From NCBI GenBank assembly GCA_014075295.1, contig CP046180.1, positions 554,040 to 618,039 of the forward strand: 64,000 nt of DNA. Direction: 5' to 3'. Made by a program: the position numbers and the translations under genes. The notes under the pieces are model-generated. The model was not told the DNA's origin and did not search any database. It saw only the letters and a list, made by a program, of their open reading frames with translations. The first letter of the stretch is position 1, and every line of letters starts with the position of its first letter. This DNA comes from Candidatus Mycalebacterium zealandia (lineage in GTDB: Bacteria; Desulfobacterota_D; UBA1144; Nemesobacterales; Mycalebacteriaceae). This document shows positions 4,138 to 45,290 of this stretch, piece after piece.

Positions 4138-4734
4138 TTGCTGGACCCGCCTTTTAATTCCAATCGCAACTATTCCGCTCCAATCGGCAGTGAAGCCGCC
4201 GGAGCGGCTTTCAAAGACACTTGGACTTTTTCAGAAGTGGATAACGTCTGGCACGGAGAGATTGCTGAAAAAGAACCGGCAATTTATGAGGCAATTTCCG
4301 CGAGTGGAATTACACACGGTAAGGGAATGAAGTCATATCTGATTATGATGGCGGTTCGCCTGATTGAAATGAAGCGGGTTTTGAAACCAACCGGAAGCAT
4401 TTATTTGCATTGCGACCCGACAGCGAGCCATTATTTAAAAATGTTGATGGATGCGGTTTTTGGGAAAGAGAATTTTAAAAATGAGATTGTTTGGTGCTAC
4501 GCGAACGCGGGAAGATCAAAAAAGAAGTTTGCTCAAAAGCACGATGTAATTCTCTTTTATTCGAAATCCGAAAAATACGCTTGGACTGATTACAGAATTC
4601 CCGTTTCGGAAGCATATTTGGAAAGCCACTACAGGCAAAAAGATGGCAAGGGGCGAAGGTGTCGCATAAGAGTTGACGCCGGAAAAAAGCGCATTTATTA
4701 CCCGGAAGACGGAATGATTTGCAATGATTGGTAG
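4138..4734 (+). pseudogene. truncated, frame-disrupted beta-class DNA methyltransferase (N6A/N4C type), N-terminal half only
   Basis: Begins directly with motif IV LDPPFNSNRNY, then KRVLKPTGSIYLHCD and ILFYSKSEK typical of beta-class MTases, but ends at 198 aa before any SAM-binding FxGxG motif I. After the in-frame TAG, the same frame continues as ...ERTGYPKSG (HPTQKP-like motif), then shifts frame. Confidence 0.55.
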
Positions 4735-4863
4735 GAACTTCCTTACTTGAATTCTCAATCAAAAGAACGCACCGGCTACCCGAAAAGCGGTTGATTTGGT
4801 AACCTCCCGAATGAGACGGAAAACTACGCTTTTGAAAGGTTTGACCCCATTCATCGAGAGGAC

Positions 4864-5136
4864 GTGCCGACAAGAAAGTCGGGCGCGGAAAATTACAGAG
4901 ACCCCGAAAAGAAGAAGTTTTTATACGGACAGCAAGAGGGCAAATGCAACGGTTGCCGTGTTTTGTTTCCCTATCGCAATATGACGGTTGACCACGAAAC
5001 TCCGCAAAGCAAAGGCGGAGGCGACAACATTGAAAATCTGCAACTTCTCTGCGGGGCTTGTAATTCAATGAAAGGCGCGGGAACGCAAGAAGAGTTAATC
5101 GTCAGACTCAAAGAAGCGGGCGTTAATTACCGCTGA
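4864..5136 (+). CDS. small HNH endonuclease
   Basis: 90 aa with a GTG start. Contains CNGCRV...VDHETPQSKGGGDNIENLQLLCGACNSMKG, a canonical HNH ββα-metal motif with Cys pairs. The frame is open upstream to 4795 without an ATG, so it may be the remnant of a larger MTase-HNH gene. Confidence 0.6.
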   Translation: MPTRKSGAENYRDPEKKKFLYGQQEGKCNGCRVLFPYRNMTVDHETPQSKGGGDNIENLQLLCGACNSMKGAGTQEELIVRLKEAGVNYR

Positions 5137-6717
5137 TTACTTCTCAAAAAACACGCTCATTGCGTCGGCCAGACCTTCGGCGGTGTGCTTTTTCGCGACA
5201 ACGGACGGTTTGAAGCCCGCATCTTCAACAGTTTTTGCCGTGATGGGACCGATACAGCCGATTGAGGATTTACTCAAAATCTCTTTCGCGTTTTTGAAAA
5301 TGGCGAGGAAGTTTGTCGCCGATGACGAACTTGTAAAAACAACCATGTCCACCGCGCCGTCAAACATTTCGCGCCCGACCGCTTTAATTTCGGCGGGTTC
5401 ATGTTTCGGAATTCGCGTGCGGTAGCATGGCGCGGTTTGAACCTTCGCGCCCATTTTCTTCAAGCCCGCCGGAAGCGCGTCTCTGGCTTTTTCAGCTCTT
5501 GGAATAAAAAAGGTTTTTCCGCGAATTCCGCGCTTTTTCATCTCCGCGAGCACTCCCTCGGCGGTGTATTTTTTCGGAATTATGTCCGCTTCTATTCCAA
5601 AGCCGTTCAGGGCTTCGGCGGTTTTGCTTCCTATTGCCACGGTTTGAATTCCCGCGAGCGCCCTTGAATCAAGCGCCTTCTTTTTCATTCTCTCAAAAAA
5701 CCTTTCAACACCGTTTACGCTTGTGAACGCGAGAAAATCGCACGAGGAAAGATTTTTAATAATCCGGTCGGCATTGTTCCATGAACGCGGCGGAACAATC
5801 TCAATGCAGGGAAACGAGATGACTTCCGCGCCGCGCTGTTGCAAAAGTTTTACAAAATCCGCCGATTGACCCGCCGGACGGGTAACGACAATTTTTTTGC
5901 CGAAAAGCGGCTTTGTTTCAAACCAGTTCAATTTTTTCCTCATTCCAATCGCACCTCCCGCTATCACGACCGCCGGAGCGAAATCAGCCCCTTCGCCGCG
6001 GATTTTCGCGCTTATGTTTTCAAGCGTGCCGACAACGGTTTTCTGTTTTCCCGTTGTTCCGCGCGAGGTAACCATAACGGGGGTTTTTCGCGGTTTTTTA
6101 TTTTGTATGAGTTTTTTTGTTATCTCCTCAATGTTGTTCAGAGACATAAGGAAAACAACGGTTTCCATTCCGGCGAGATTTTTCCAGTTCAGGCGCGATT
6201 TTTTGTCGGGCTTCTCATGTCCCGTTACGACAGCGAAAGACGAATTGAAGTCTCTGTGGGTGAGCGGCACGCCTGAGTAAGCCGGAACGGAATAAACTGA
6301 ACTCACACCCGGAATAACCTCAATCACAATGCCGGCGGACAACAGTGCTTCGGTTTCTTCGCCGCCTCTTCCGAACACAAAAGGGTCTCCGCCTTTGAGG
6401 CGCACAACCGTTTTGCCACATTGCGCCTTGTTTATCATCAAGCGGTTAATTTCTTTTTGTTCAAGAGTTTTCATCCCCTTTTTTTTGCCCGCGAAAATCA
6501 TCTCCGCGCCGTGCGGGGCGAATTCCAGCAAAGAATTGTTTGCCAGCGCGTCGTAAATGACCACATCGGCGCACGCAAGAGTTTCCATTCCCTTGACGGT
6601 TATGAGACCCGGGTCTCCGGGTCCCGCGCCGACCAGATAAACCGCCGGTCTGTTTTTTATCGCTTTTCCTTTTTTCATCAGAACTATTAGCAATAACAAC
6701 GGGTGCGATGTTGTCAA
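5137..6717 (-). CDS. cobA: bifunctional uroporphyrinogen-III C-methyltransferase / uroporphyrinogen-III synthase (CobA-HemD fusion)
   Basis: N-terminal VYLVGAGPGDPGLITVKG...GGDPFVFGRGGEE (SUMT signature) and a C-terminal 250-aa HemD-like domain. 526 aa. Confidence 0.85.
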   Translation of the reverse strand: MTTSHPLLLLIVLMKKGKAIKNRPAVYLVGAGPGDPGLITVKGMETLACADVVIYDALANNSLLEFAPHGAEMIFAGKKKGMKTLEQKEINRLMINKAQCGKTVVRLKGGDPFVFGRGGEETEALLSAGIVIEVIPGVSSVYSVPAYSGVPLTHRDFNSSFAVVTGHEKPDKKSRLNWKNLAGMETVVFLMSLNNIEEITKKLIQNKKPRKTPVMVTSRGTTGKQKTVVGTLENISAKIRGEGADFAPAVVIAGGAIGMRKKLNWFETKPLFGKKIVVTRPAGQSADFVKLLQQRGAEVISFPCIEIVPPRSWNNADRIIKNLSSCDFLAFTSVNGVERFFERMKKKALDSRALAGIQTVAIGSKTAEALNGFGIEADIIPKKYTAEGVLAEMKKRGIRGKTFFIPRAEKARDALPAGLKKMGAKVQTAPCYRTRIPKHEPAEIKAVGREMFDGAVDMVVFTSSSSATNFLAIFKNAKEILSKSSIGCIGPITAKTVEDAGFKPSVVAKKHTAEGLADAMSVFFEK

Positions 6718-19920: not shown

Positions 19921-21243
19921 ATGAATATACAACCCCCGCAGGATGAAAGAAAAAGTCTGAGGAAAGACGCCGCAACGCTTTTCGCCGGAGGCATGGGTGC
20001 GTCTATTTTTACGACTCTTGAAGTTGTTTTTCTCGCCCGTTTTCTGGATCTAGAACAGTTCGGCGTGTTCACGCTTGTTTTGTCATATGTAACCCTTGTT
20101 AACGCCTTTGTTGATTTCAGAATAAGAGAGGCCTCGGTTAAATACATCTCTGAATATTGTGAAAAGAACGACAAGACATCCGCGCTTTCATTTATCAAAT
20201 TTTTCTATTTAATCGATTTTCTCGGCGGGATTCTCGCGTTTGTTGTCTGTGTTGCCCTTGCCGAAGTTGCAAACGAATTTTTTATTAAATCTGAAAACAC
20301 TTTTCAGTATGTTCTTATCCTCTCTTTGAGCCTTTTTGTCTTGACTGTTAATCAGAATTCCAACGCGATACTTCAGGCGTTGAAAAAGTTTAGAGAGTCG
20401 GCTTTTCTGAAAGTTGTGGATGCTTTTGTCAAACTTGCTTTAATTGTGCTGTTTTTTGTTCTGGGATTTGGATTAAAGGGCTTTTTTATCGCTTACGTTA
20501 TTGCGGCTGTTGTGAATTTTGCCATACTTCAATTCTATGTGAACAGGACTCTGAAACTTGAAGGAATGAGCGGATGGTTATTTGCGGACCTCTCGAAAAT
20601 CAAAGGAAAAATGCGCGAAGTGATTTGGTTTGTTCTGAATATAAACGCGACGGGTTTCGTTTCCTTTTCCTTCTCCACACATATTCCTATTCTTCTGCTT
20701 GGTCATTTTTCAGGTGTTGAGGCGTCGGGGCTTTACAGAGTCGCAAAAAGCGTGGTATCTGCGGCAAATAAGATAACGGGTCCCGTTTATTCCGTTCTCT
20801 ATCCGGCTCTTGTGCGTCTTGAGACAAGAAAATCCTACGATGAATTCAGGCAGCTTATTGTCTATTCAGTAAAGGAAATAATGAAGTTTTTGTTGCCTGT
20901 TTGTGTTTTTCTGTTTGTTTTTGCGTATGAATTTATAGAAATTGTTTTCGGCAGTGAATTTACTCCCGCGACTGACGCAATGAGAGTTTTGACAGGCGCA
21001 ATGGTTGTAGGACACCTGTGCAAATGGTCGAATTTTGCTTTGTTGGCTTTCGGAATGCCCGGAACCAAAACGGTTTTTTCAATTCTGTTTGCGTGTGTAG
21101 GATTGGCGTCTATGTTTATTCTTATTCCTGATTATTCATATCTTGGAGCGGCGTGGGCGTTTTTCATACCTGAGTTTCTGTCTGTTTTTGTTGGTGTTTT
21201 TGTTCTTATGCGTGTTCGCGCGATGAGTGTAAAAGGAGTATAG
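19921..21243 (+). CDS. polysaccharide biosynthesis protein / Wzx-like oligosaccharide flippase (MOP superfamily)
   Basis: 440-aa polytopic membrane protein with the typical flippase N-terminus. Glycosyltransferase neighbours. Confidence 0.55.
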   Translation: MNIQPPQDERKSLRKDAATLFAGGMGASIFTTLEVVFLARFLDLEQFGVFTLVLSYVTLVNAFVDFRIREASVKYISEYCEKNDKTSALSFIKFFYLIDFLGGILAFVVCVALAEVANEFFIKSENTFQYVLILSLSLFVLTVNQNSNAILQALKKFRESAFLKVVDAFVKLALIVLFFVLGFGLKGFFIAYVIAAVVNFAILQFYVNRTLKLEGMSGWLFADLSKIKGKMREVIWFVLNINATGFVSFSFSTHIPILLLGHFSGVEASGLYRVAKSVVSAANKITGPVYSVLYPALVRLETRKSYDEFRQLIVYSVKEIMKFLLPVCVFLFVFAYEFIEIVFGSEFTPATDAMRVLTGAMVVGHLCKWSNFALLAFGMPGTKTVFSILFACVGLASMFILIPDYSYLGAAWAFFIPEFLSVFVGVFVLMRVRAMSVKGV

Positions 21244-21244
21244 A

Positions 21245-22162
21245 TTGATGAAAAGTCATAACTTTCCTCTGCCTCTGGTTAGTATTCTTGTTCTTTCCTA
21301 TAACAGAAAAAGTTGGTTGCGGGAAAGTTTGGATTCAATCTTAGCTCAGGATTATCCGAATATTGAGATAATTGTTTGTGATGATGCTTCCACGGATGGA
21401 AGTCAGGATGTTTTGCGTGAATATAAGGAGAAAAACTCCGACATCAATTTTGTTTTATCTCTTTCATCTCAAAATGAGGGTATAACAGCAAATCTGAACA
21501 AAGGTCTTTCTTTTTATCAGGGCAAATATGTTGTCACCTTTTCAGATGACGACATTATGCTTCCGGAAAAAATTACCCGGCAAGTGGCTTTTATGGAAGA
21601 CAATCCCGATTGCGCCGTTTGTTACCACAATATGGAAGTTTTTGACGAGGATACCAATAAAACCTTGCGTCTTTTCAACCATAAAGGAAACAGTTACGAG
21701 GGTGGTGTTGAAGTCTCACTTAAATATGGAATGTTTTCCGGGGCACCCTCATGTATGTACAGAGCAGACAAAATTCCCGATGGGGGGTGTAACCCTCTCC
21801 TTTCCAATACGTCTGATTGGTTCTTTATAATAGAAATTCTGGCGGGTGGGGGGACTATAAATTACATTGACGAAGTTCTTCTGAGATACAGACGGCACGC
21901 CAATGCCGACTCCATGAAATCTGATAGGATGGACCCCGGTGTTTTAGATACTCTGAATACATGCAACATTGTAATATTCAAATATACTCATCTTTTTAAC
22001 GAGGCAATGTATGCGTATGCAAGACGACTTGAAAAGCTCAGCAGGAAAAAAGGAATTAATTACAGATCTGCGCTGATTTCCAGTTTGAGGTTGAGTTTTA
22101 GAATGAGCGCTTTTCTCCGTTTGCTTGCCTACATTTTTTCGTTTGGCAAACTCAAATTTTAA
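21245..22162 (+). CDS. glycosyltransferase family 2
   Basis: VSILVLSYNRKSWLRESLDSILAQDYPNIEIIVCDDASTDGS (GT2 DXD region). Confidence 0.75.
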   Translation: MMKSHNFPLPLVSILVLSYNRKSWLRESLDSILAQDYPNIEIIVCDDASTDGSQDVLREYKEKNSDINFVLSLSSQNEGITANLNKGLSFYQGKYVVTFSDDDIMLPEKITRQVAFMEDNPDCAVCYHNMEVFDEDTNKTLRLFNHKGNSYEGGVEVSLKYGMFSGAPSCMYRADKIPDGGCNPLLSNTSDWFFIIEILAGGGTINYIDEVLLRYRRHANADSMKSDRMDPGVLDTLNTCNIVIFKYTHLFNEAMYAYARRLEKLSRKKGINYRSALISSLRLSFRMSAFLRLLAYIFSFGKLKF

Positions 22163-24558: not shown

Positions 24559-26142
24559 TTAGTCCAAACTCCGGTAGCGTCCTTTTTGAATGATGAAGAC
24601 CGTGAGGCAGGGCACCGCCACGCCAATTACCGTGGCGGTTATCAGAAGTATTCCCAGTTCCGAATAGTCCGCGGATGTGATGATTTTCTGCGCTTCGTCT
24701 CTTACCTCGCGCGTTATGATAAAAATTTCATTCAAATACTTTGAGCCGAGGCTCGCCGCTGAAAGCGAGAGATTTGAAAAAGACGCGAACACGGCGAAAA
24801 AAGTCGCTTTGAGATGGTCGGGCGCGTTTTTCGCTATCCACGCGAGAAGCGGAATCATTGCCACCTGTCCCAGAGGGGATTCAAGTGCCGTGTTCACAAT
24901 CGCTATGAATTTTGCATCCACAACGCCGTCCGTCAGCGCCGCCGTCCATTCGTGAAGCCCGTAGAAAAGCCCAATGTCGGGAAGTGACAGAACGCCCCAC
25001 ACCAGGGACAGAAAAACAATAAGCCATGGTATTTTAACCCTGCTCATAAGAGGCAGAAAAACAAATATGCCCGCGAGCGTGAGAGTGGAGCCTATGAGCG
25101 ACAGATATGAGAAAAACTGCTCGTCAAAGCCAATTTCGTCTATCAGAAACCAGCCGTTTCCCGGACCTATGGTCGGCACGGCGCGGAAGAAAAAAATGAT
25201 TATCGCCGTTCCTATAAGAGTGGCGTGTTTATCTTCGGGCAGTTCGGTAAGCAGTTTTCGCATAAGGAAAATCACTATCGCCATGGAGCCCGTGAACACT
25301 ATTTCCTCCGAATAGGGAACTTTTGAGAGCCCCGTTCCGATGCTGAAAATGACAAAGGCGAGGCTCCCCCAGAGAATCCACCAGTTTGGTGCGGTTGGAG
25401 TCTGAAGCTTCGGCACGCCGGGTATATGTCCGGTTTTTTTCAGGATTTCAGCGAGAACAACGCCCATGATGGACACAAGCGGAATGGCGAGAGCCATAAG
25501 GTATATTTCACTGTAAACATGCGCTTTTTCCGGTCGGGAAAGTTCCGATGTGTCATTAAAGGCGACTATGTTGATAATTGAAACCACAACCGTGCCGCCG
25601 ATAACGGCAAATCTGCCGAGTGTTTGCATTGTTGTGTGCGCGGATTTGAGTTCCTCTTCGCTGATTTTTTCACCCCGGGAATCCACGGTGGGAACGGCTT
25701 CAACCGTCATCGCGTCCGCAACAACGTCCTGAAGCACATAACCGACGGGGCTGATAATCACGCTTGCTACGAACCAGTTGGAGATGGGCCAGATTTGCCG
25801 CATATATTCAGTGTGGGCTATCAGCCCGTAAACAATAAGCAGCCCCACCGCGATAAGTGCCGCGCCTATAAACACAAGGACGGATTTCCAGCGCCAGATC
25901 AGGTCAACAAGATGCCCAACTGGCATTTTGAGCGCCCACGGGAGCCCCGCCCAGAAGCCGAGACCGGCGAGAAAAGCGGCGGACAAGTCCAGATAGTCTT
26001 TGACAAAAAAAGTGGCGACAATTCCCGTAAGCCCCGAAATTCCCGCCGCCAAATACACCATAAGCGGCGGTATGTAGCTCAGTCGAAGCTGTTTGAAAAT
26101 CCCAACAAAATCTTCGGCGAAAAACTTCCTCAGCGTGTTCAT
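24559..26142 (-). CDS. large polytopic membrane protein, possibly a BT1 (folate-biopterin)-like MFS transporter
   Basis: 527 aa, at least 12 predicted TM segments. N-terminal FFVKDYLDLSAAFLAGLGFWAGLPWALKMPVGHLVDLIWRWKS resembles the BT1 family signature. Confidence 0.35.
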   Translation of the reverse strand: MNTLRKFFAEDFVGIFKQLRLSYIPPLMVYLAAGISGLTGIVATFFVKDYLDLSAAFLAGLGFWAGLPWALKMPVGHLVDLIWRWKSVLVFIGAALIAVGLLIVYGLIAHTEYMRQIWPISNWFVASVIISPVGYVLQDVVADAMTVEAVPTVDSRGEKISEEELKSAHTTMQTLGRFAVIGGTVVVSIINIVAFNDTSELSRPEKAHVYSEIYLMALAIPLVSIMGVVLAEILKKTGHIPGVPKLQTPTAPNWWILWGSLAFVIFSIGTGLSKVPYSEEIVFTGSMAIVIFLMRKLLTELPEDKHATLIGTAIIIFFFRAVPTIGPGNGWFLIDEIGFDEQFFSYLSLIGSTLTLAGIFVFLPLMSRVKIPWLIVFLSLVWGVLSLPDIGLFYGLHEWTAALTDGVVDAKFIAIVNTALESPLGQVAMIPLLAWIAKNAPDHLKATFFAVFASFSNLSLSAASLGSKYLNEIFIITREVRDEAQKIITSADYSELGILLITATVIGVAVPCLTVFIIQKGRYRSLD

Positions 26143-26250
26143 TGGTTGCCGTTTTGGACGGAATGGATAGTGAATGTTATGAGGTTGAGTGGGGGTTGTA
26201 AAGTGAAGGACACAAGCCGGACTTCTTACTCGGAAAAAAAGGCGTGCCGA

Positions 26251-26487
26251 GTTGTGAATTGAGGGCAGGTTTCAGTCAGTTACAATCTGCGCGCGCTATC
26301 TTCAATCTGTCTTTGAGTTGTGAATTAAGGGCAGGTTTCAGTCAGTTACAATACGGACAAATTATTGTAAGACAGGGCAGGGGGTGTTGTGAATTAAGGG
26401 CAGGTTTCAGTCAGTTACAATTTACAGTTCGCACTTCCTACCAAGGCGCGAGTTGTGAATTAAGGGCAGGTTTCAGTCAGTTACAAT
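26251..26487 (+). CRISPR. CRISPR array, 4 repeats / 3 spacers, 36-bp repeat GTTGTGAATTAAGGGCAGGTTTCAGTCAGTTACAAT
   Basis: Repeats at 26251-26286 (variant with G at position 11), 26317-26352, 26386-26421 and 26452-26487. Spacers are 30, 33 and 30 nt. Sits directly 3' of cas2. The ORF-track entry 26244..26489 is a translation artefact of the array. Confidence 0.9.
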
Positions 26488-26537
26488 AGCTCGTCCTCAA
26501 CTGTCCTGCTGGCAAGGGGTTATGGCTTTTCCACAAA

Positions 26538-26867
26538 TCAAAAAAGAGTGATTTGCTGAGGAGCCCTTTCCAGTTTCTTTCGTTTTTTCCCATAAAAAAT
26601 TTGCATTCGTCCAAATTGCTTGTCTGTAATTGTAATAATCCGCACTTCGCCTTCGGGAGGCAAAGATTCTCTTACTCGCCCTGAATGGACATAGGCGTTT
26701 TCTTCGCTTGCGCAGTGTCTGGCATATACGGAGAACTGCATCATGATAAATCCGTCTTGCATAATATGCTTTCTGAACTTCGTATAATCTTTCCGTGCTC
26801 TCTTTGTGTCTGTGGGAAGGTCAAACATAACTATTATCCACACGGTTCTGTATCCTCCGAAAGCCAT
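26538..26867 (-). CDS. cas2: CRISPR-associated endoribonuclease Cas2 (type II)
   Basis: 109 aa with N-terminal IVMFDLPTDTKRARKDYTKFRKHIMQDGFIMMQFSVYARH, typical of type II Cas2. Confidence 0.9.
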   Translation of the reverse strand: MAFGGYRTVWIIVMFDLPTDTKRARKDYTKFRKHIMQDGFIMMQFSVYARHCASEENAYVHSGRVRESLPPEGEVRIITITDKQFGRMQIFYGKKRKKLERAPQQITLF

Positions 26868-26870
26868 TTT

Positions 26871-27779
26871 TTACATTTCAATCCTCATTTGTTTGTTCTC
26901 AATCAGTTCCGGTATTTTCAAAGAGTCAATTCCTTCTGAAAACGCTTTCTTCAGGCTCGCGGCCATGTATTGATTTGCCACCATCATTGGCAATTTCTTT
27001 TCTTCAAGTAAAACATCTTCAGACAGAAGGGAAAGCAATGATAACTTTATCTTTTTATCAATTTCTGTTTTTCCATTTTCGTTCAATTCATAAACTCGTC
27101 TGTCAACAAGAGGTCTCAACGGTTCCATAATGTCATCGGCGAGACACATAGGGTTGTATTGATTGTGATGATGAATTCCGAGCGCAGGATGAAGCCCTGT
27201 TCCGCACAAAGCGCGAGCAACAGACGCCCTGATTAGGCTGTATCCGTAGTTTAGAAGGGAATTCACTCCACTTTCTTTGTAATCTCTGCCGAATTCTTTC
27301 CCGAACAGTATTGACCAGTATATTTTTGCGGCTTGCGCTTCAATATTTTTCGGATCACCACTTTGAACTCTCTTCTTGAGACTTGGAAGTGTTCCCGGAT
27401 CTTTCTTGAAAAAGAGCAACGTTTGAATCTGCGCCTCGGTTTTGGCTATTATAATTTTCTGCCAGAGCCGTTTTTTCAGCGGTTTTTTAACTCCCGTCTG
27501 TATGTTGAGAACCTTGCTGTGCATTGAGTTTCCTGAGAGAGGAAGCAAGGCGGAAACGGGTAGATGCCTTTGGTCGCAAAACACAATTATGCAGTTATTT
27601 TTCTGACATTCCGCTATAAGACTTTGAGAGATTGAGATTGCAGGGTTGGCAAGTATGAGAATACCCATGTCTTCCACGGGAATACTGCTGTCATTTTCAC
27701 TCTCTTTTCTGATAATCATCTGACAGTCTTTCAGATGAAGGTATGCGGGGTTGCTGATTTCAATGATTCTTTTGATCAT
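26871..27779 (-). CDS. cas1: CRISPR-associated integrase Cas1 (type II)
   Basis: 302 aa, type II Cas1-like throughout. Its start overlaps the cas9 stop by 4 nt. Confidence 0.9.
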   Translation of the reverse strand: MIKRIIEISNPAYLHLKDCQMIIRKESENDSSIPVEDMGILILANPAISISQSLIAECQKNNCIIVFCDQRHLPVSALLPLSGNSMHSKVLNIQTGVKKPLKKRLWQKIIIAKTEAQIQTLLFFKKDPGTLPSLKKRVQSGDPKNIEAQAAKIYWSILFGKEFGRDYKESGVNSLLNYGYSLIRASVARALCGTGLHPALGIHHHNQYNPMCLADDIMEPLRPLVDRRVYELNENGKTEIDKKIKLSLLSLLSEDVLLEEKKLPMMVANQYMAASLKKAFSEGIDSLKIPELIENKQMRIEM

Positions 27780-30700
27780 TGTGTTTTAGTGTTGTTTTTA
27801 GCGAGACCAAGAGCATTTATGGATTCTTGTTTTACTTTGTATTCCGCCATTAGTGTTGAAGGAGCCATTGCCAATTCAAGTTTTTTCTTTTCATCGGAGG
27901 ATAGTTTTTTAAAATCTTGATCTGAGGTTCCGTCTGTGTGTTTTCGTAGTATCAATTTTATACACTGATTTTTCTGTCCTCTGTCTATTTTCCGCACTCT
28001 ATAGAATATTTTCTCACCGTTTTTCTGAACACTTACGGTGTCATTTATACATAGACTCATAACAAATTCCCGGTTTTCCCCGTGTTCAGTTTTTACAATC
28101 GGTTCTTTCCTAATTCTTGTTCTCTCTGCGGCTTTCATAGTTGTTACAACAATACTCTCATATTTTCCGGTTTCTCCATTCTTGATAATTTCCACATGAT
28201 GATTGTTGCCATATTGCAAAACCTTTGAGATTTTTCCTGCTTTATTCTTCTTCGTATAGTAAAAACTCTCATTAAAGGTTTTAGACATCCAAACTTTAAC
28301 GCGTCTGACAGCATCTCCCGTTTCCGGGTGTTTCAACGGTTGTTCTTTCAAAGCTTTTTTTGCCTTGCTCAAATCATTTCCTTGTTCCAAAACATATCTT
28401 TCAAATGCTTCTCTAACAGTTGGAGATACTATCTCTTTGTTCTTCAACACAGCGTCTGATATATCAGTCAAGTTTTTACGAACAACAATTCCTTTTTTGC
28501 CGTTTTCTTCTCTTACTCCATAAATCGTGTCTTCGTGAAATGCTCCCGTTATTTTTCTGTTTGTTGCATGAGAGACAATCATTCCATCTACAGCTTCCTG
28601 CAGTCTGTTTCTGAGATTGTCAAGAATTCTAGGGGGTTCCAATCCATGTTCGGGGTCTATGGAATCACCGCTAGCCTCTGATGCCACTTTGACTATTTTT
28701 TGATAAAGACTGCGGTTCGTAAGCGCAATCACGGTTGCGTCAATCGCGTGGTGTCTGTGGTCGGCGCGGTTTTTCTCTCCCGTTTCGCTGAGAATTTTAT
28801 TTAATCCCCATTGGTGACGGAGCCAACTTGTTATTCCGCCTTTTGTAAAAGTTACATCGCAACCGAGAGTTCTCATATACTTGCCGGTTTCTTTTGCTAT
28901 GTAGCGTGCGTCAGTCAGCTGGCTGTTAACAAAATCTTCAATTCCTTCCATTTTTTTTGCCAGAATTCTTCCGCATTTTGCTTCGGGATAGTTGTTGCGT
29001 TTTGCCATGCTCTCAATGGTTTTCCATTGTTCTGTTTCGCCAAATGCTTCCCACGGTGTTTTGTTGTGCTTTTCCCTGTTCTCTTTTGCAAAACATATGA
29101 CCTTGTTCATATAAGAGTTATCAAGACTTCTGCTATACGGAAGAATGTGATCTATTTCAACATCGGAAGACCAGAGGTCCGTCAAACTGATAGACTTTCC
29201 GCTGTATGAACATTTACACTCACTTTCTTTCCAGAGTCTGTATTTCAGTTTGTCCTGATGGCTTATATATTTCTTTAACCGCAAGTCGGGTTCCCTATCT
29301 CTGATGCTATTGTATTTTTCTTCCGCTTCCTCATTGGCTTTCCTATTCTTTTTATGTATTTGTTCCGCTCTTTTGTATTTTTCCGTGTTCATCTCTAAAT
29401 CACGAGACATTTCTATGCGTATAGCGGTTGGTTTCCCGTACTCTTTGATAATTGCATTCACAACACGCCGGACTTCATAAAGAGCTTTTGTAACAATGGG
29501 ATTCGGTATAAAAGGCAGTTCGCCAAGAGTTTCTTTGTCTCCGGTCTTCGGTTTTGTAATGTCTTTATAGCCTGCTACTTGAACCGCTCCCGTTTCATCT
29601 TCCTTGTCGCTTTCCCTGCTATAAACCCTGCCTTCTTTAAGGTGTGGCAGGATTTTATTTATTGCTTTCAGTGAAAGATTTCCATGTCCCTCTTCCAATT
29701 CCAGAACAGCAAGTTTGACAGCTTTTTCCAAATCAAATTTCCAGTGATCTTGCAGGCGTTTTTTCAGTTTTATTTTGGACTCATAGGAAATTAAGTCTTC
29801 AACAAGTTGTTTTTGTTTGCTGTCGTCGAGTGAGTCGTCCCAATCATCTCCGATAATCTCTCTTATTCCGCAAGCTGTTGTGTTTCCCTTAATACCCTTT
29901 CTGCTTTTTCCTTCAACTTTTTCCAGATTGAATTTTGTTCGTTTGTTCAGGCTGAACAGGGTTTTTATTTTTGCCCATGTCAGATTTTTGTTTTTCTCAA
30001 GCGTTTCGGCAATTAGTTGTTTCTGCTCAGGCGAGGGTTTTACATCTCTTTCTCCCGTTTCGGTGTCATCCCAACTTAAATTGTTAATGTCCTGCCAGTA
30101 ACGAAATTGCTGAAATTCAAGACGTTCCATTTTCACTCTTTTCTTTTTCGGTTCAAGAGAACAATTACCCACGGTGTTTTTATTCCAAATTATAGAGCGT
30201 TGGTTAAAGATGATTTTCTCAATCGCGTTTTTGACATTTTCCGTATAAATCTTTGGATTAAGTGCGAATTGCTTACGGAAGATTTGTTCAAACTCTTCCT
30301 GATACATTTTTCTGTCGGTTCTGCGGTCATGATATTCTCCTCTGTTGCGTTTGCGGTTCAGGGTTGAGAGGTGTTCGCCAAGGGTTCTTTTTCCGGCTTC
30401 TTTTATATCATCTCGGAGTTCTTGAATGTCTTTTTTGAATTTGTTTTCATCGTTGTCAGTTTTTGCAGATTTATCTTCAATTTCTAAAATTTCCCGCACC
30501 TCCGGGTCATCACGCAAATTTCCAAATCCCGTTTTGCGGTTGCTTAAAAATCCTCGCCGTGTTCCCAAGTGAAGTATCGCGCGTCCAAACTTATGTGGAG
30601 TCAATTCTTCGTCCAACGCTTTTGCCCTTAAATCATAAGGGTTGCCCAGTTTGTTAAGTTCCGTTTCAGGATTGGGTTCATCTTTCAGAGAATTCGGCAG

Positions 30701-30964
30701 AAATTCTTTGCTTATCAGATAGTTTCTCAGACGCATTTTACGTCTATGTCGCCTTTCAATTACACGCCTTAAAAGCCGTTTCTCTCGACGGTTTTGATTT
30801 TTTGGGGTGGGTGTTTTGTCTTCAACGGAACGGATAAAAATCCTGCTTCCACAACTTACGAGTCCTTTCGGTTTGCCGTTCTTTTCCTCTACAACACTCC
30901 AGCCAATGGAGTTTGTTCCCATATCAAGACCAATTGTGTATTCAGACAGTTTTGCTTTTTTCAT
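27776..30964 (-). CDS. cas9: Cas9 endonuclease, type II-C
   Basis: 1062 aa. RuvC-I motif YTIGLDMGTNSIGWSVV (Asp14). HNH motif VEIDHILPYSRSLDNSYMNKVICFAKENREKHNKTP (His about residue 606). Arg-rich bridge helix KNQNRREKRLLRRVIERRHRRKMRLR. No csn2 or cas4 in the locus, hence II-C. Confidence 0.9.
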   Translation of the reverse strand: MKKAKLSEYTIGLDMGTNSIGWSVVEEKNGKPKGLVSCGSRIFIRSVEDKTPTPKNQNRREKRLLRRVIERRHRRKMRLRNYLISKEFLPNSLKDEPNPETELNKLGNPYDLRAKALDEELTPHKFGRAILHLGTRRGFLSNRKTGFGNLRDDPEVREILEIEDKSAKTDNDENKFKKDIQELRDDIKEAGKRTLGEHLSTLNRKRNRGEYHDRRTDRKMYQEEFEQIFRKQFALNPKIYTENVKNAIEKIIFNQRSIIWNKNTVGNCSLEPKKKRVKMERLEFQQFRYWQDINNLSWDDTETGERDVKPSPEQKQLIAETLEKNKNLTWAKIKTLFSLNKRTKFNLEKVEGKSRKGIKGNTTACGIREIIGDDWDDSLDDSKQKQLVEDLISYESKIKLKKRLQDHWKFDLEKAVKLAVLELEEGHGNLSLKAINKILPHLKEGRVYSRESDKEDETGAVQVAGYKDITKPKTGDKETLGELPFIPNPIVTKALYEVRRVVNAIIKEYGKPTAIRIEMSRDLEMNTEKYKRAEQIHKKNRKANEEAEEKYNSIRDREPDLRLKKYISHQDKLKYRLWKESECKCSYSGKSISLTDLWSSDVEIDHILPYSRSLDNSYMNKVICFAKENREKHNKTPWEAFGETEQWKTIESMAKRNNYPEAKCGRILAKKMEGIEDFVNSQLTDARYIAKETGKYMRTLGCDVTFTKGGITSWLRHQWGLNKILSETGEKNRADHRHHAIDATVIALTNRSLYQKIVKVASEASGDSIDPEHGLEPPRILDNLRNRLQEAVDGMIVSHATNRKITGAFHEDTIYGVREENGKKGIVVRKNLTDISDAVLKNKEIVSPTVREAFERYVLEQGNDLSKAKKALKEQPLKHPETGDAVRRVKVWMSKTFNESFYYTKKNKAGKISKVLQYGNNHHVEIIKNGETGKYESIVVTTMKAAERTRIRKEPIVKTEHGENREFVMSLCINDTVSVQKNGEKIFYRVRKIDRGQKNQCIKLILRKHTDGTSDQDFKKLSSDEKKKLELAMAPSTLMAEYKVKQESINALGLAKNNTKTQ

Positions 30965-30984
30965 TTGCCACTCTCACCAATTGT

Positions 30985-31012
30985 TTGACAAATTGCTTTG
31001 TCCCGATACGAT
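30985..31012 (+). promoter_or_regulatory. candidate sigma70 promoter for the tracrRNA (TTGACA -N16- TACGAT)
   Basis: Perfect -35 TTGACA at 30985-30990 and TACGAT at 31007-31012, placing +1 about 31019-31021 at the first base of the anti-repeat. Overlaps the 5' region upstream of cas9, in divergent orientation. Confidence 0.4.
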
Positions 31013-31020
31013 ACATAACT

Positions 31021-31136
31021 ATTGTTACTGACTGAAACCTGTCCAAACATTTTTTTTCAATTCATAACAAGAGACTAATGTTTCGCAGGCAACCCCTTCG
31101 GGGGACCTTGGCGCCTCCCAGTGGGGCGCTTTTTTA
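31021..31136 (+). ncRNA. tracrRNA: predicted tracrRNA
   Basis: 31021-31044 ATTGTTACTGACTGAAACCTGTCC matches the reverse complement of repeat positions 13-36 at 22/24. 31059-31068 AATTCATAAC complements repeat positions 1-10 with one G-U wobble. Between them is a 14-nt U-rich bulge. Downstream are a CCCC-TTCG-GGGG hairpin and a GC-rich hairpin GCGCCUC-CCAGU-GGGGCGC followed by TTTTTT at 31130-31135. Confidence 0.6.
31111..31135 (+). terminator. intrinsic terminator of the tracrRNA
   Basis: 7-bp GC-rich stem (GCGCCUC / GGGGCGC with one G-U) and a 5-nt loop, then a U6 tract. Confidence 0.6.
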
Positions 31137-37928: not shown

Positions 37929-38001
37929 GAGCCGTTAGCTCAGCTGGCAGAGCAACTGCCTTTTAAGCAGTGGGTCGCAGGTTCGAATCCTGCACGGCTC
38001 A
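37929..38001 (+). tRNA. tRNA-Lys (anticodon TTT)
   Basis: Cloverleaf GAGCCGT / ACGGCTC acceptor, D-arm GCTCAGCTGGCAGAGC, anticodon loop CTTTTAA, T-arm GTCGCAGGTTCGAATCCTGCAC. No encoded CCA. Confidence 0.85.
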
Positions 38002-38012
38002 TTTCAAGTCCG

Positions 38013-38087
38013 GTCCCCGTCGTCTAGCCTGGCCCAGGACACCGCCCTTTCACGGTGGCAACAGGGGTTCGAATCCCCTCGGGGACG
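38013..38087 (+). tRNA. tRNA-Glu (anticodon TTC)
   Basis: Near-identical to E. coli tRNA-Glu: GTCCCCG...CCCTTTCACGG...AGGGGTTCGAATCCCCT...CGGGGAC. Confidence 0.85.
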
Positions 38088-45123: not shown

Positions 45124-45197
45124 GCGTCCCCGGAGGGATTTGAACCCCCGACCCCGGGATTAGGAATCCCGTGCTCTATCCAACTGAGCTACGGGGA
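45124..45197 (-). tRNA. tRNA-Arg (anticodon CCT)
   Basis: Minus-strand GTCCCCG-TA-GCTCAGTTGGATAGAGC-A-CGGGATTCCTAATCCCG-GGGTC-GGGGGTTCAAATCCCTC-CGGGGAC-G. Confidence 0.8.
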
Positions 45198-45290
45198 CGT
45201 TTCCAGCGTACTTTAACCGTCCGCGCCTGTTTGTTCAAAAGCGCGAAATTTTAGATGCCCCGCACTTGTATTATAGTCATGCCTTATGTT

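Follow-up and report, generated by a model that had tools for sequence, protein, structure and literature searches.

The chromosome of Candidatus Mycalebacterium zealandia, a sponge symbiont of the Dadabacteria, carries a compact CRISPR-Cas9 (CRISPR, clustered and regularly interspaced short palindromic repeats) locus which raises the question of whether an unusual system has been built around a divergent nuclease, or whether a known plan has simply been met in a new host. The locus occupies positions 26251–31136 of a 64,000-nucleotide stretch of contig CP046180.1, the whole of which is referred to here as the window. A first-pass annotation, made from the letters of the window, had described it as type II-C and had proposed a Cas9 of unknown target preference. 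The comparisons presented below favour the second answer: with a probability of about 0.85, the predicted genes and RNAs constitute an intact and complete type II-C adaptive-immunity locus of known plan. Architecture, guide RNAs and polarity all conform to that plan, and the locus is ordinary rather than unusual; it opens no new question and reveals no new mechanism.

Gene layout and the Cas9 protein

The genes cas9, cas1 and cas2 form a single tight operon on the minus strand, with the start of cas1 and the stop of cas9 overlapping by 4 nt. The CRISPR array lies 50 nt past cas2, and cas1, cas2 and array therefore all adjoin cas9 (Table 1). Neither csn2 nor cas4 is present at the locus, and no further open reading frame (ORF) is found between the BT1 transporter and aldehyde dehydrogenase genes that enclose it. 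The neighbourhood is of a housekeeping character: genes for a BT1-family transporter and a MacB-type permease flank the locus at one end, and genes for an aldehyde dehydrogenase, a TPR protein and a PfkB kinase at the other. Subtype II-C is defined by the minimal operon cas9, cas1 and cas2 in the absence of csn2 and cas4 (PMC3737331), which is the arrangement observed in the window. The hallmarks of type II as a whole are likewise found: an effector with a split RuvC and an HNH domain, the adjacency of cas1, cas2 and array, and a gene for a trans-activating CRISPR RNA (tracrRNA) with a pairing anti-repeat and 3' hairpins. Every element that the first-pass annotation had listed is found where it had been placed, and its assignment to II-C is supported.

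The 1062-residue Cas9 matches the curated model TIGR01865 at 640 bits, well above the cut-off of 100 and over model positions 1–1048 of 1070, and it contains the Pfam domains HNH_4, RuvC_III and the Cas9 alpha-helical lobe (Cas9_a). The deposited sequence harbours neither a premature stop nor a frameshift, either of which the annotation had named as grounds for abandoning its claim. The motifs GLDMGTNSIGW and DHILPYS, with D14 and H606, and the arginine-rich helix, located at residues 57–82, are present as described. In an alignment of 20 clade members (A1), the catalytic residues D14, E518, D605/H606, N629, H738/H739 and D742 show no variation or next to none.

A sequence search against solved structures ranks GeoCas9 and ThermoCas9 highest (264–266 bits), followed by Nme1Cas9 (222–230 bits). 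A full-length AlphaFold model has a mean predicted local distance difference test score (pLDDT) of 67 and a predicted template modelling score (pTM) of 0.39; it aligns end to end with ThermoCas9 (24% identity), Nme1Cas9 (22%), GeoCas9 (24–26%) and HpaCas9 (20%), with E values of ∼1e-33 to 1e-40. Fold searches with the full-length and the C-terminal models return Cas9 structures only, with II-C enzymes on top. Judged by these top sequence and fold matches, GeoCas9, ThermoCas9, Nme1Cas9 and HpaCas9, the predicted protein groups with II-C orthologs.

The C-terminal domain had been singled out as bearing no obvious similarity to the Nme, Cje or Sp Cas9 sequences. The divergence in sequence is confirmed, whereas the suggestion of unrelatedness is not. 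When residues 770–1062 are modelled alone (pLDDT 77), the top 50 fold matches are exclusively Cas9 C-terminal regions, including those of GeoCas9 and ThermoCas9 (23% identity, E ∼1e-10), SaCas9 (TM score 0.54) and Nme1Cas9 and Nme2Cas9 (16–19%). The domain is thus diverged in sequence, and its modelled fold is that of a standard wedge (WED) and protospacer-adjacent motif (PAM)-interacting (PI) region. Sequence divergence is usual for PI domains. A swap of the PI domain was also considered and rejected: along its length, Cas9 matches the intact close relatives at a fairly uniform level of identity (58–80%), the lowest values falling in the C-terminal third.

The protein is by no means solitary. 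The same sequence is deposited in GenBank as QMU56110.1, under the name 'MAG: type II CRISPR RNA-guided endonuclease Cas9 [Candidatus Mycalebacterium zealandia]', and is found identically on 6 contigs in public data. A word-based search scored 2124 homologues. Approximately 37 of these, from other metagenome-assembled genomes (MAGs) of Dadabacteria type, are 55–72% identical, the closest database proteins being uncharacterised and 65–72% identical; a large group at 44–47% identity stems from Methylococcales, Binatia, Nitrospiria, Thiotrichales and several sponge symbionts. Sequence comparison therefore identifies this Cas9 as a further ortholog of a populous and already annotated family of more than 2000 homologues.

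Guide RNA, array polarity and candidate promoters

A scan of one genome per species yielded 80 loci encoding relatives (labelled L001 and so forth). An inverted copy of the repeat is situated 57 nt upstream of the cas9 start codon, with a terminator ∼90 nt further on. The 64-kb window contains five copies of a 19-nt repeat core, one in each of the four repeats and one in the inverted anti-repeat copy at 31021–31039, when none is expected (100 shuffles). The predicted tracrRNA is divergent from cas9 and is equipped with a candidate promoter and terminator of its own. A TTGACA-like −35 box is found at the same place in 7 of 11 close loci, the window included, and a −10-like hexamer shortly precedes the anti-repeat in most of them.

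A repeat–GAAA–tracrRNA fusion folds at −71.9 kcal/mol into a shape resembling a single-guide RNA (sgRNA), with a 10-bp guide-proximal duplex, a 14-nt loop on the tracrRNA side, a distal duplex of ∼23 bp, a 5-bp nexus, a second hairpin and the terminator. Across 40 distinct repeat and tracrRNA fusions, 82.3% of cells fall in standard pairs, compared with 38–45% when partners are slid by 1–3 columns; 27 pairs show changes on both sides, and of these the distal duplex contributes 15 (out of 23 pairs), hairpin 2 contributes 4 (out of 4) and the nexus 2 (out of 5). These values were reached by none of 500 shuffles, and the predicted crRNA:tracrRNA structure (crRNA, CRISPR RNA) is well supported by covariation. 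A scan of the locus against Rfam, CRISPR-DR and tracrRNA models included, gave no family at threshold and only chance-level matches (E > 3). The assertion that the window alone suffices for reconstructing the guide RNA is well supported by the covariation in these 40 loci, and the coordinates proposed for it prove accurate, except that the tracrRNA had been extended to 31136, one position beyond the end of the U-tract.

The internal loop on the tracrRNA side varies between 6 and 20 nt across the Dadabacteria Cas9 group. Termination of bacterial transcription at its run of eight U residues is unlikely, because no hairpin precedes the run. The same run would stop RNA polymerase III if an sgRNA were driven by a U6 promoter.

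Since anti-repeat, promoter and terminator all lie on the plus strand, the crRNA sense is assigned to the plus strand as well, opposite to the cas genes. The BT1 gene upstream of the array points away, which makes read-through generating extraneous crRNA unlikely. Arrays of Neisseria meningitidis (Nme) and Campylobacter jejuni (Cje) are also read opposite to the cas operon (PMC3737331). II-C arrays have a promoter embedded in each repeat, take up new spacers at the last one and begin with an 'extra' repeat, which is the oldest and frequently carries mutations; repeat-embedded promoters and last-repeat acquisition are given for type II-C in general (PMC12080349, citing Dugar et al.).

Each repeat of the array in the window closes with a −10-like TACAAT hexamer, and the ending G-n-T-A-n-n-n-T is common to 62 of 62 related repeat consensus sequences (TACACT in 34, TACAAT in 13, TATACT in 7 and other forms in 8). 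In the fusion alignment (A2), T31, A32, A34 and T36 of the repeat are invariant, whereas paired positions next to them covary, a pattern characteristic of a −10 element; by analogy with Nme and Cje (PMC12080349), TACAAT is a candidate crRNA promoter. Among 49 complete arrays, a repeat deviating from the consensus is found at the cas-distal end in 13 and at the cas2-proximal end in one. The 50 nt that separate the last repeat from the cas2 stop are conserved in 11 close loci, whereas cas-distal flanks are unrelated; this stretch is probably the leader-like side at which spacers would be acquired, to go by the published II-C behaviour (PMC12080349). Taken together, the polarity features fit what has been reported for II-C arrays (PMC12080349, PMC3737331), transcription itself being predicted. 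The 62 repeat families thereby lend comparative support to the notion that II-C repeats carry their own −10 element and that arrays grow at the cas2 side.

One detail had been overlooked in the first-pass annotation. Repeat 1, the cas-distal one, has a G at position 11 (window 26261), where repeats 2–4, identical to one another, have an A (26327, 26396 and 26462). By analogy, repeat 1 would be the oldest, 'extra' repeat, supplying the promoter of crRNA 1 with no guide of its own. The tracrRNA base facing position 11 is a C, which gives a G:C pair with repeat 1 and an A:C mismatch with repeats 2–4. In L008 all repeats have the G form. The repeat termini had been likened to those of Neisseria, with a different interior, and this holds: GTTGT and TACAAT-like ends frame a sequence that is, by hand count, ∼44% identical to an Nme-like Haemophilus repeat.

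On this basis the system may be envisaged to operate as follows. Transcription from the −10 box at the end of each repeat would yield three short plus-strand crRNAs, starting ∼7 nt inside each spacer as in Nme- and Cje-type II-C systems, ordered from the oldest spacer towards cas2 and each consisting of a guide of ∼23–27 nt followed by the repeat. Pairing of repeat and tracrRNA would fall into two segments, 10 bp beside the guide and ∼23 bp distally, with the 14-nt loop between them. Cas9 would bind this duplex together with the nexus and the two 3' hairpins, read the PAM through its C-terminal WED/PI domain and use its HNH and RuvC sites to cleave both strands of the DNA. Insertion of new spacers by Cas1–Cas2 would take place at the cas2-proximal repeat, beside the conserved flank.

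The strand opposite the anti-repeat may have a further role. In the wider clade it keeps the TACACT box of the repeat 17–30 nt before the cas9 ATG, and there it is plausible that a repeat-derived element may also drive the cas operon. In the window, a promoter-like site within the anti-repeat faces cas9 and is a speculative candidate for the cas operon promoter; the −10 box opposite the anti-repeat is weakened here (AACAAT), and for that reason the idea is kept as speculation. If true, one repeat-derived element would stand behind both tracrRNA pairing and cas9 transcription.

Table 1. Positions of the predicted elements of the locus (window coordinates; Cas9 motifs and domains in residues)
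Feature	Position	Strand	Remarks
CRISPR array	26251–26487	+ (crRNA sense, opposite to cas genes)	four 36-nt repeats, three spacers
Repeats 1–4	26251–26286, 26317–26352, 26386–26421, 26452–26487	+	36 nt each
Spacers 1–3	26287–26316, 26353–26385, 26422–26451	+	30, 33 and 30 nt
TACAAT, −10-like hexamer	26281–26286, 26347–26352, 26416–26421, 26482–26487	+	closes every repeat; candidate crRNA promoter
Conserved flank	26488–26537	+	50 nt, last repeat to cas2 stop; probable leader-like side
cas2	26538–26867	−	109 aa; PF09827 1e-18, TIGR01573 4.8e-21 (75 bits)
cas1	26871–27779	−	302 aa, type II (NMENI) class; TIGR03639 cas1_NMENI 286 bits, cut-off 120
cas9	27776–30964	−	1062 aa, intact; TIGR01865 640 bits; HNH_4, RuvC_III, Cas9_a
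Cas9 motifs	RuvC-I D14; RuvC-II E518; HNH D605/H606/N629; RuvC-III H739/D742		GLDMGTNSIGW (RuvC-I), DHILPYS (HNH)
WED/PI region	∼aa 770 to 1062	−	from fold matches
tracrRNA promoter candidate	30985–31012	+	TTGACA, 16 nt, TACGAT; 10/12 consensus; predicted start ∼31019–31020
Promoter-like site facing cas9	31018–31045	−	inside anti-repeat; TGGACA, 16 nt, AATAGT; 9/12 consensus
tracrRNA	31019–31135	+	∼117 nt; predicted own promoter and terminator; upstream of cas9, divergent
Distal anti-repeat	31021–31044	+	92% complementary to repeat
tracrRNA internal loop	31045–31058	+	14 nt; U8 run at 31050–31057
Proximal anti-repeat	31059–31068	+	
Nexus hairpin	31071–31084	+	
Hairpin 2	31087–31108	+	
Intrinsic terminator	31110–31135	+	GC-rich stem-loop 31110–31130, U-tract to 31135

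Characterised counterparts

The closest experimentally studied counterpart emerged from a search of the supplements of published papers for the tracrRNA signature. Cme2Cas9, a 1008-residue protein from a compost metagenome (Ga0079224_100072790), belongs to clade IX of Gasiunas et al. 2020 (PMC7606464, supplement file 4, row 59); biochemical work has shown it to act as an RNA-guided nuclease whose PAM is NAGNGC (PMC7606464). Its 36-nt repeat, GUUGUGGAUUCCGGGCAGGCAUCGAUCAACUACACU, shares ends and core with that of the window (GUUGUGGAUUCCGGGCAGG...CUACACU), and its tracrRNA presents the modules of the window's in the same order: ...CCAUAACAAG, nexus hairpin, CUUCGCAGG, a hairpin, AAACC and a CCUCC...GGGGG terminator. 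In alignment A4 the mean column identity is 73% over the window, Cme2, L076, L001 and L047 together, a value from which the share of Cme2 cannot be separated. A homologous repeat and tracrRNA scaffold place the window's system in a Cme2Cas9-like group. Differences are also apparent: the Cme2 tracrRNA lacks the 14-nt internal loop and, although both enzymes are compact, Cme2Cas9 shares 40% identity with the window's Cas9 over its N-terminal 399 residues (E = 5e-79), too little for the two to be the same ortholog. As the comparison covers the first 400 residues of Cme2Cas9 and the PI region lies outside them, the PAM NAGNGC is not transferable to the window's Cas9. A database look-up for full-length Cme2Cas9 returned a 51% fragment as its closest match, and the other sources searched contained no characterised enzyme closer than Cme2Cas9.

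GeoCas9 and ThermoCas9, the Geobacillus II-C enzymes (PDB 8jtj, 8uza and 9ar4), are of similar size (1082–1087 aa) and match over the full-length fold at E = 3e-40. GeoCas9 is 36% identical over 767 aligned columns and 26% when the full length is counted. These systems differ from the window's in the sequences of repeat and tracrRNA, and their PAM-reading residues find no confident alignment. The II-C prototype of N. meningitidis, Nme1Cas9 (PDB 6jdq and 6jdv), shares the minimal cas9-cas1-cas2 operon, a 36-nt repeat with GTTGT start and TACAAT-like end, and an array opposite to the cas genes (PMC3737331). The two proteins are ∼22% identical with a full-length fold match, the sequence alignment stopping at approximately residue 760; in contrast to Nme, the tracrRNA of the window lies upstream of cas9 and is divergent, and the interior of the repeat is unrelated. 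The other Dadabacteria-type Cas9s (L001, L009 and L010; P0002–P0037) are uncharacterised; they are 55–72% identical over their full length, belong to the same repeat and tracrRNA family, and differ among themselves in the last 60 residues and in the tracrRNA internal loop.

An identity above 90% to a characterised ortholog had been named as an outcome that would undo the claim of a new Cas9; the figures obtained are 40% for Cme2Cas9 (N-terminal 400 aa), 36% for GeoCas9 (aligned columns) and 22% for Nme1Cas9. The protein is indeed far from characterised orthologs, whereas the significance attached to this was overstated, given its GenBank annotation, the large family with its conserved locus plan, the characterised relative Cme2Cas9 and the standard WED/PI fold modelled for the C-terminus. 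A literature search found no paper on Mycalebacterium and none on Dadabacteria together with Cas9, and neither the Metagenomi and PNAS 2025 supplements nor the PAM–repeat association tables contain the guide scaffold of the window. In practice the gain is modest, namely one more candidate compact nuclease, of 1062 aa, whose guide RNA is fully specified.

Integrity, history and alternative readings

Nearly all of the 80 related loci with a long enough contig have cas9-cas1-cas2 followed by the array ∼1.3 kb after cas9. A 36-nt repeat family, GTTGTG...GTTAnAnT, is common to all of them, as is an anti-repeat on the opposite strand, 17–80 nt upstream of cas9 or, in a few, at 320–420 nt; module-by-module homology is also seen among the tracrRNAs. 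The idea that chance or mis-assembly has produced something merely resembling a CRISPR-Cas locus is refuted by this architecture, common to dozens of independent genomes, together with the five copies of the repeat core where none is expected, curated family scores far above their cut-offs and the occurrence of the identical protein on 6 public contigs.

Three relatives, L008, L010 and L072, share the neighbours of the window's locus, with PfkB, TPR and aldehyde dehydrogenase on one side and BT1 and MacB on the other, and their flanking proteins are 62–81% identical to those of the window. The shared neighbourhood indicates that the locus is old and vertically inherited in the lineage: a II-C system has been kept at one chromosomal site in a little-studied group of sponge symbionts. 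The GC content of the cas block is ∼40%, against 50–52% around it. Recent horizontal transfer, which this might suggest, is rejected, as the locus is syntenic in the three relatives.

The more serious challenge to an intact immunity locus is that it may be a decaying or silent relic, as in reduced symbiont genomes, with genes still open and neither spacer acquisition nor interference taking place. We regard this as improbable, albeit several observations lean towards it or weigh against the reading preferred here. Three spacers make a very small array beside the 4–71 of the relatives, and the A:C mismatch with the tracrRNA affects all three guide-forming repeats. No protospacer was found for any spacer: the three spacers and 975 from relatives gave only chance matches of 15–19 nt against the window and the 80 loci, three exact scans of IMG/VR with 24–26-nt spacer cores gave no match, and neither did a comparison of 218 close-clade spacers (the window's 3 and 215 from close relatives) with 50,697 phage records. 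Also to be set against the preferred reading is the only moderate quality of the full-length Cas9 model (pLDDT 67). Moreover, cas9 is interrupted in three relatives. In L007 an insertion of ∼1.8 kb (4193–6001), carrying an ISKra4-family transposase itself in two frames, splits the gene after approximately codon 110–120; this genuine insertion testifies that loss occurs in the lineage. Frameshifts are present in L008 (∼6960 and ∼8840, both in A8 runs) and L072 (∼7375, A5). These, however, all fall in homopolymers of long-read assemblies and are probably assembly errors, not real pseudogenes. Decay is also difficult to reconcile with three full-length cas ORFs with intact catalytic residues, three identical functional repeats and a tracrRNA that retains its promoter, all helices and its terminator, and retention at the same site in genomes whose flanking proteins have diverged to 70–80% identity argues for long-term selection.

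Another conceivable role for this Cas9 is the regulation of endogenous genes, through the tracrRNA or a partner akin to scaRNA (small CRISPR/Cas-associated RNA), in place of defence. Regulation by Cas9 via a scaRNA-like partner is reported for Francisella and proposed for Neisseria. For the locus under study, the support consists of general precedent, a discussion of endogenous regulation in N. meningitidis (PMC5449619), and of the promoter-like site in the anti-repeat that faces cas9. The 64-kb window has no additional repeat-like or anti-repeat-like copy from which a scaRNA could be made, and no spacer matches the window; cas1, cas2, a polarised array and a conserved leader-side flank have all been maintained, and these are features of adaptive immunity. 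Regulation as the main function is accordingly judged very improbable, a good deal more so than decay. An intact type II-C immunity locus is the reading that best accommodates these observations.

A more venturesome extension concerns the Dadabacteria Cas9 group as a whole. Vertically inherited at a fixed site in sponge symbionts, it might read a PAM that is new among characterised compact Cas9s and tolerate an unusually large, length-variable tracrRNA loop, and the strand opposite the anti-repeat may serve as the cas promoter. This combination is put forward tentatively, and we incline to doubt it.

Several minor observations on the related loci and the window may be recorded. The anti-repeat lies 320–417 nt upstream of cas9 in L065, L067, L068 and L069; in L057 (20–1241) the array is upstream of cas9, and in L026 the anti-repeat region is partly duplicated. 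The array of L008 (10438–10737) has a first spacer equal to the third and a second equal to the fourth, L001 has two adjacent spacers that differ by 1 nt in sequence, and L003 and L004 each have identical spacer pairs; such within-array duplicates suggest internal duplication of repeat–spacer units. L065 (JYIN01000009.1) belongs to the sponge sulfur-oxidiser 'Gsub' and encodes a Cas9 relative 42% identical to the window's; the CRISPR repeats of the array beside it are tabulated in PMC5361782, the text of which never names Cas9. Besides the cas block (26000–31000), the window has a second low-GC patch (∼40%) at 20000–22000, where ORFs 19921–21243 and 21245–22162 encode a Wzx-type polysaccharide flippase and a GT2 glycosyltransferase. 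Its tRNA genes include a tandem tRNA-Lys(ttt) and tRNA-Glu(ttc) on the plus strand at 37929–38087 and a tRNA-Arg(cct) on the minus strand at 45124–45198.

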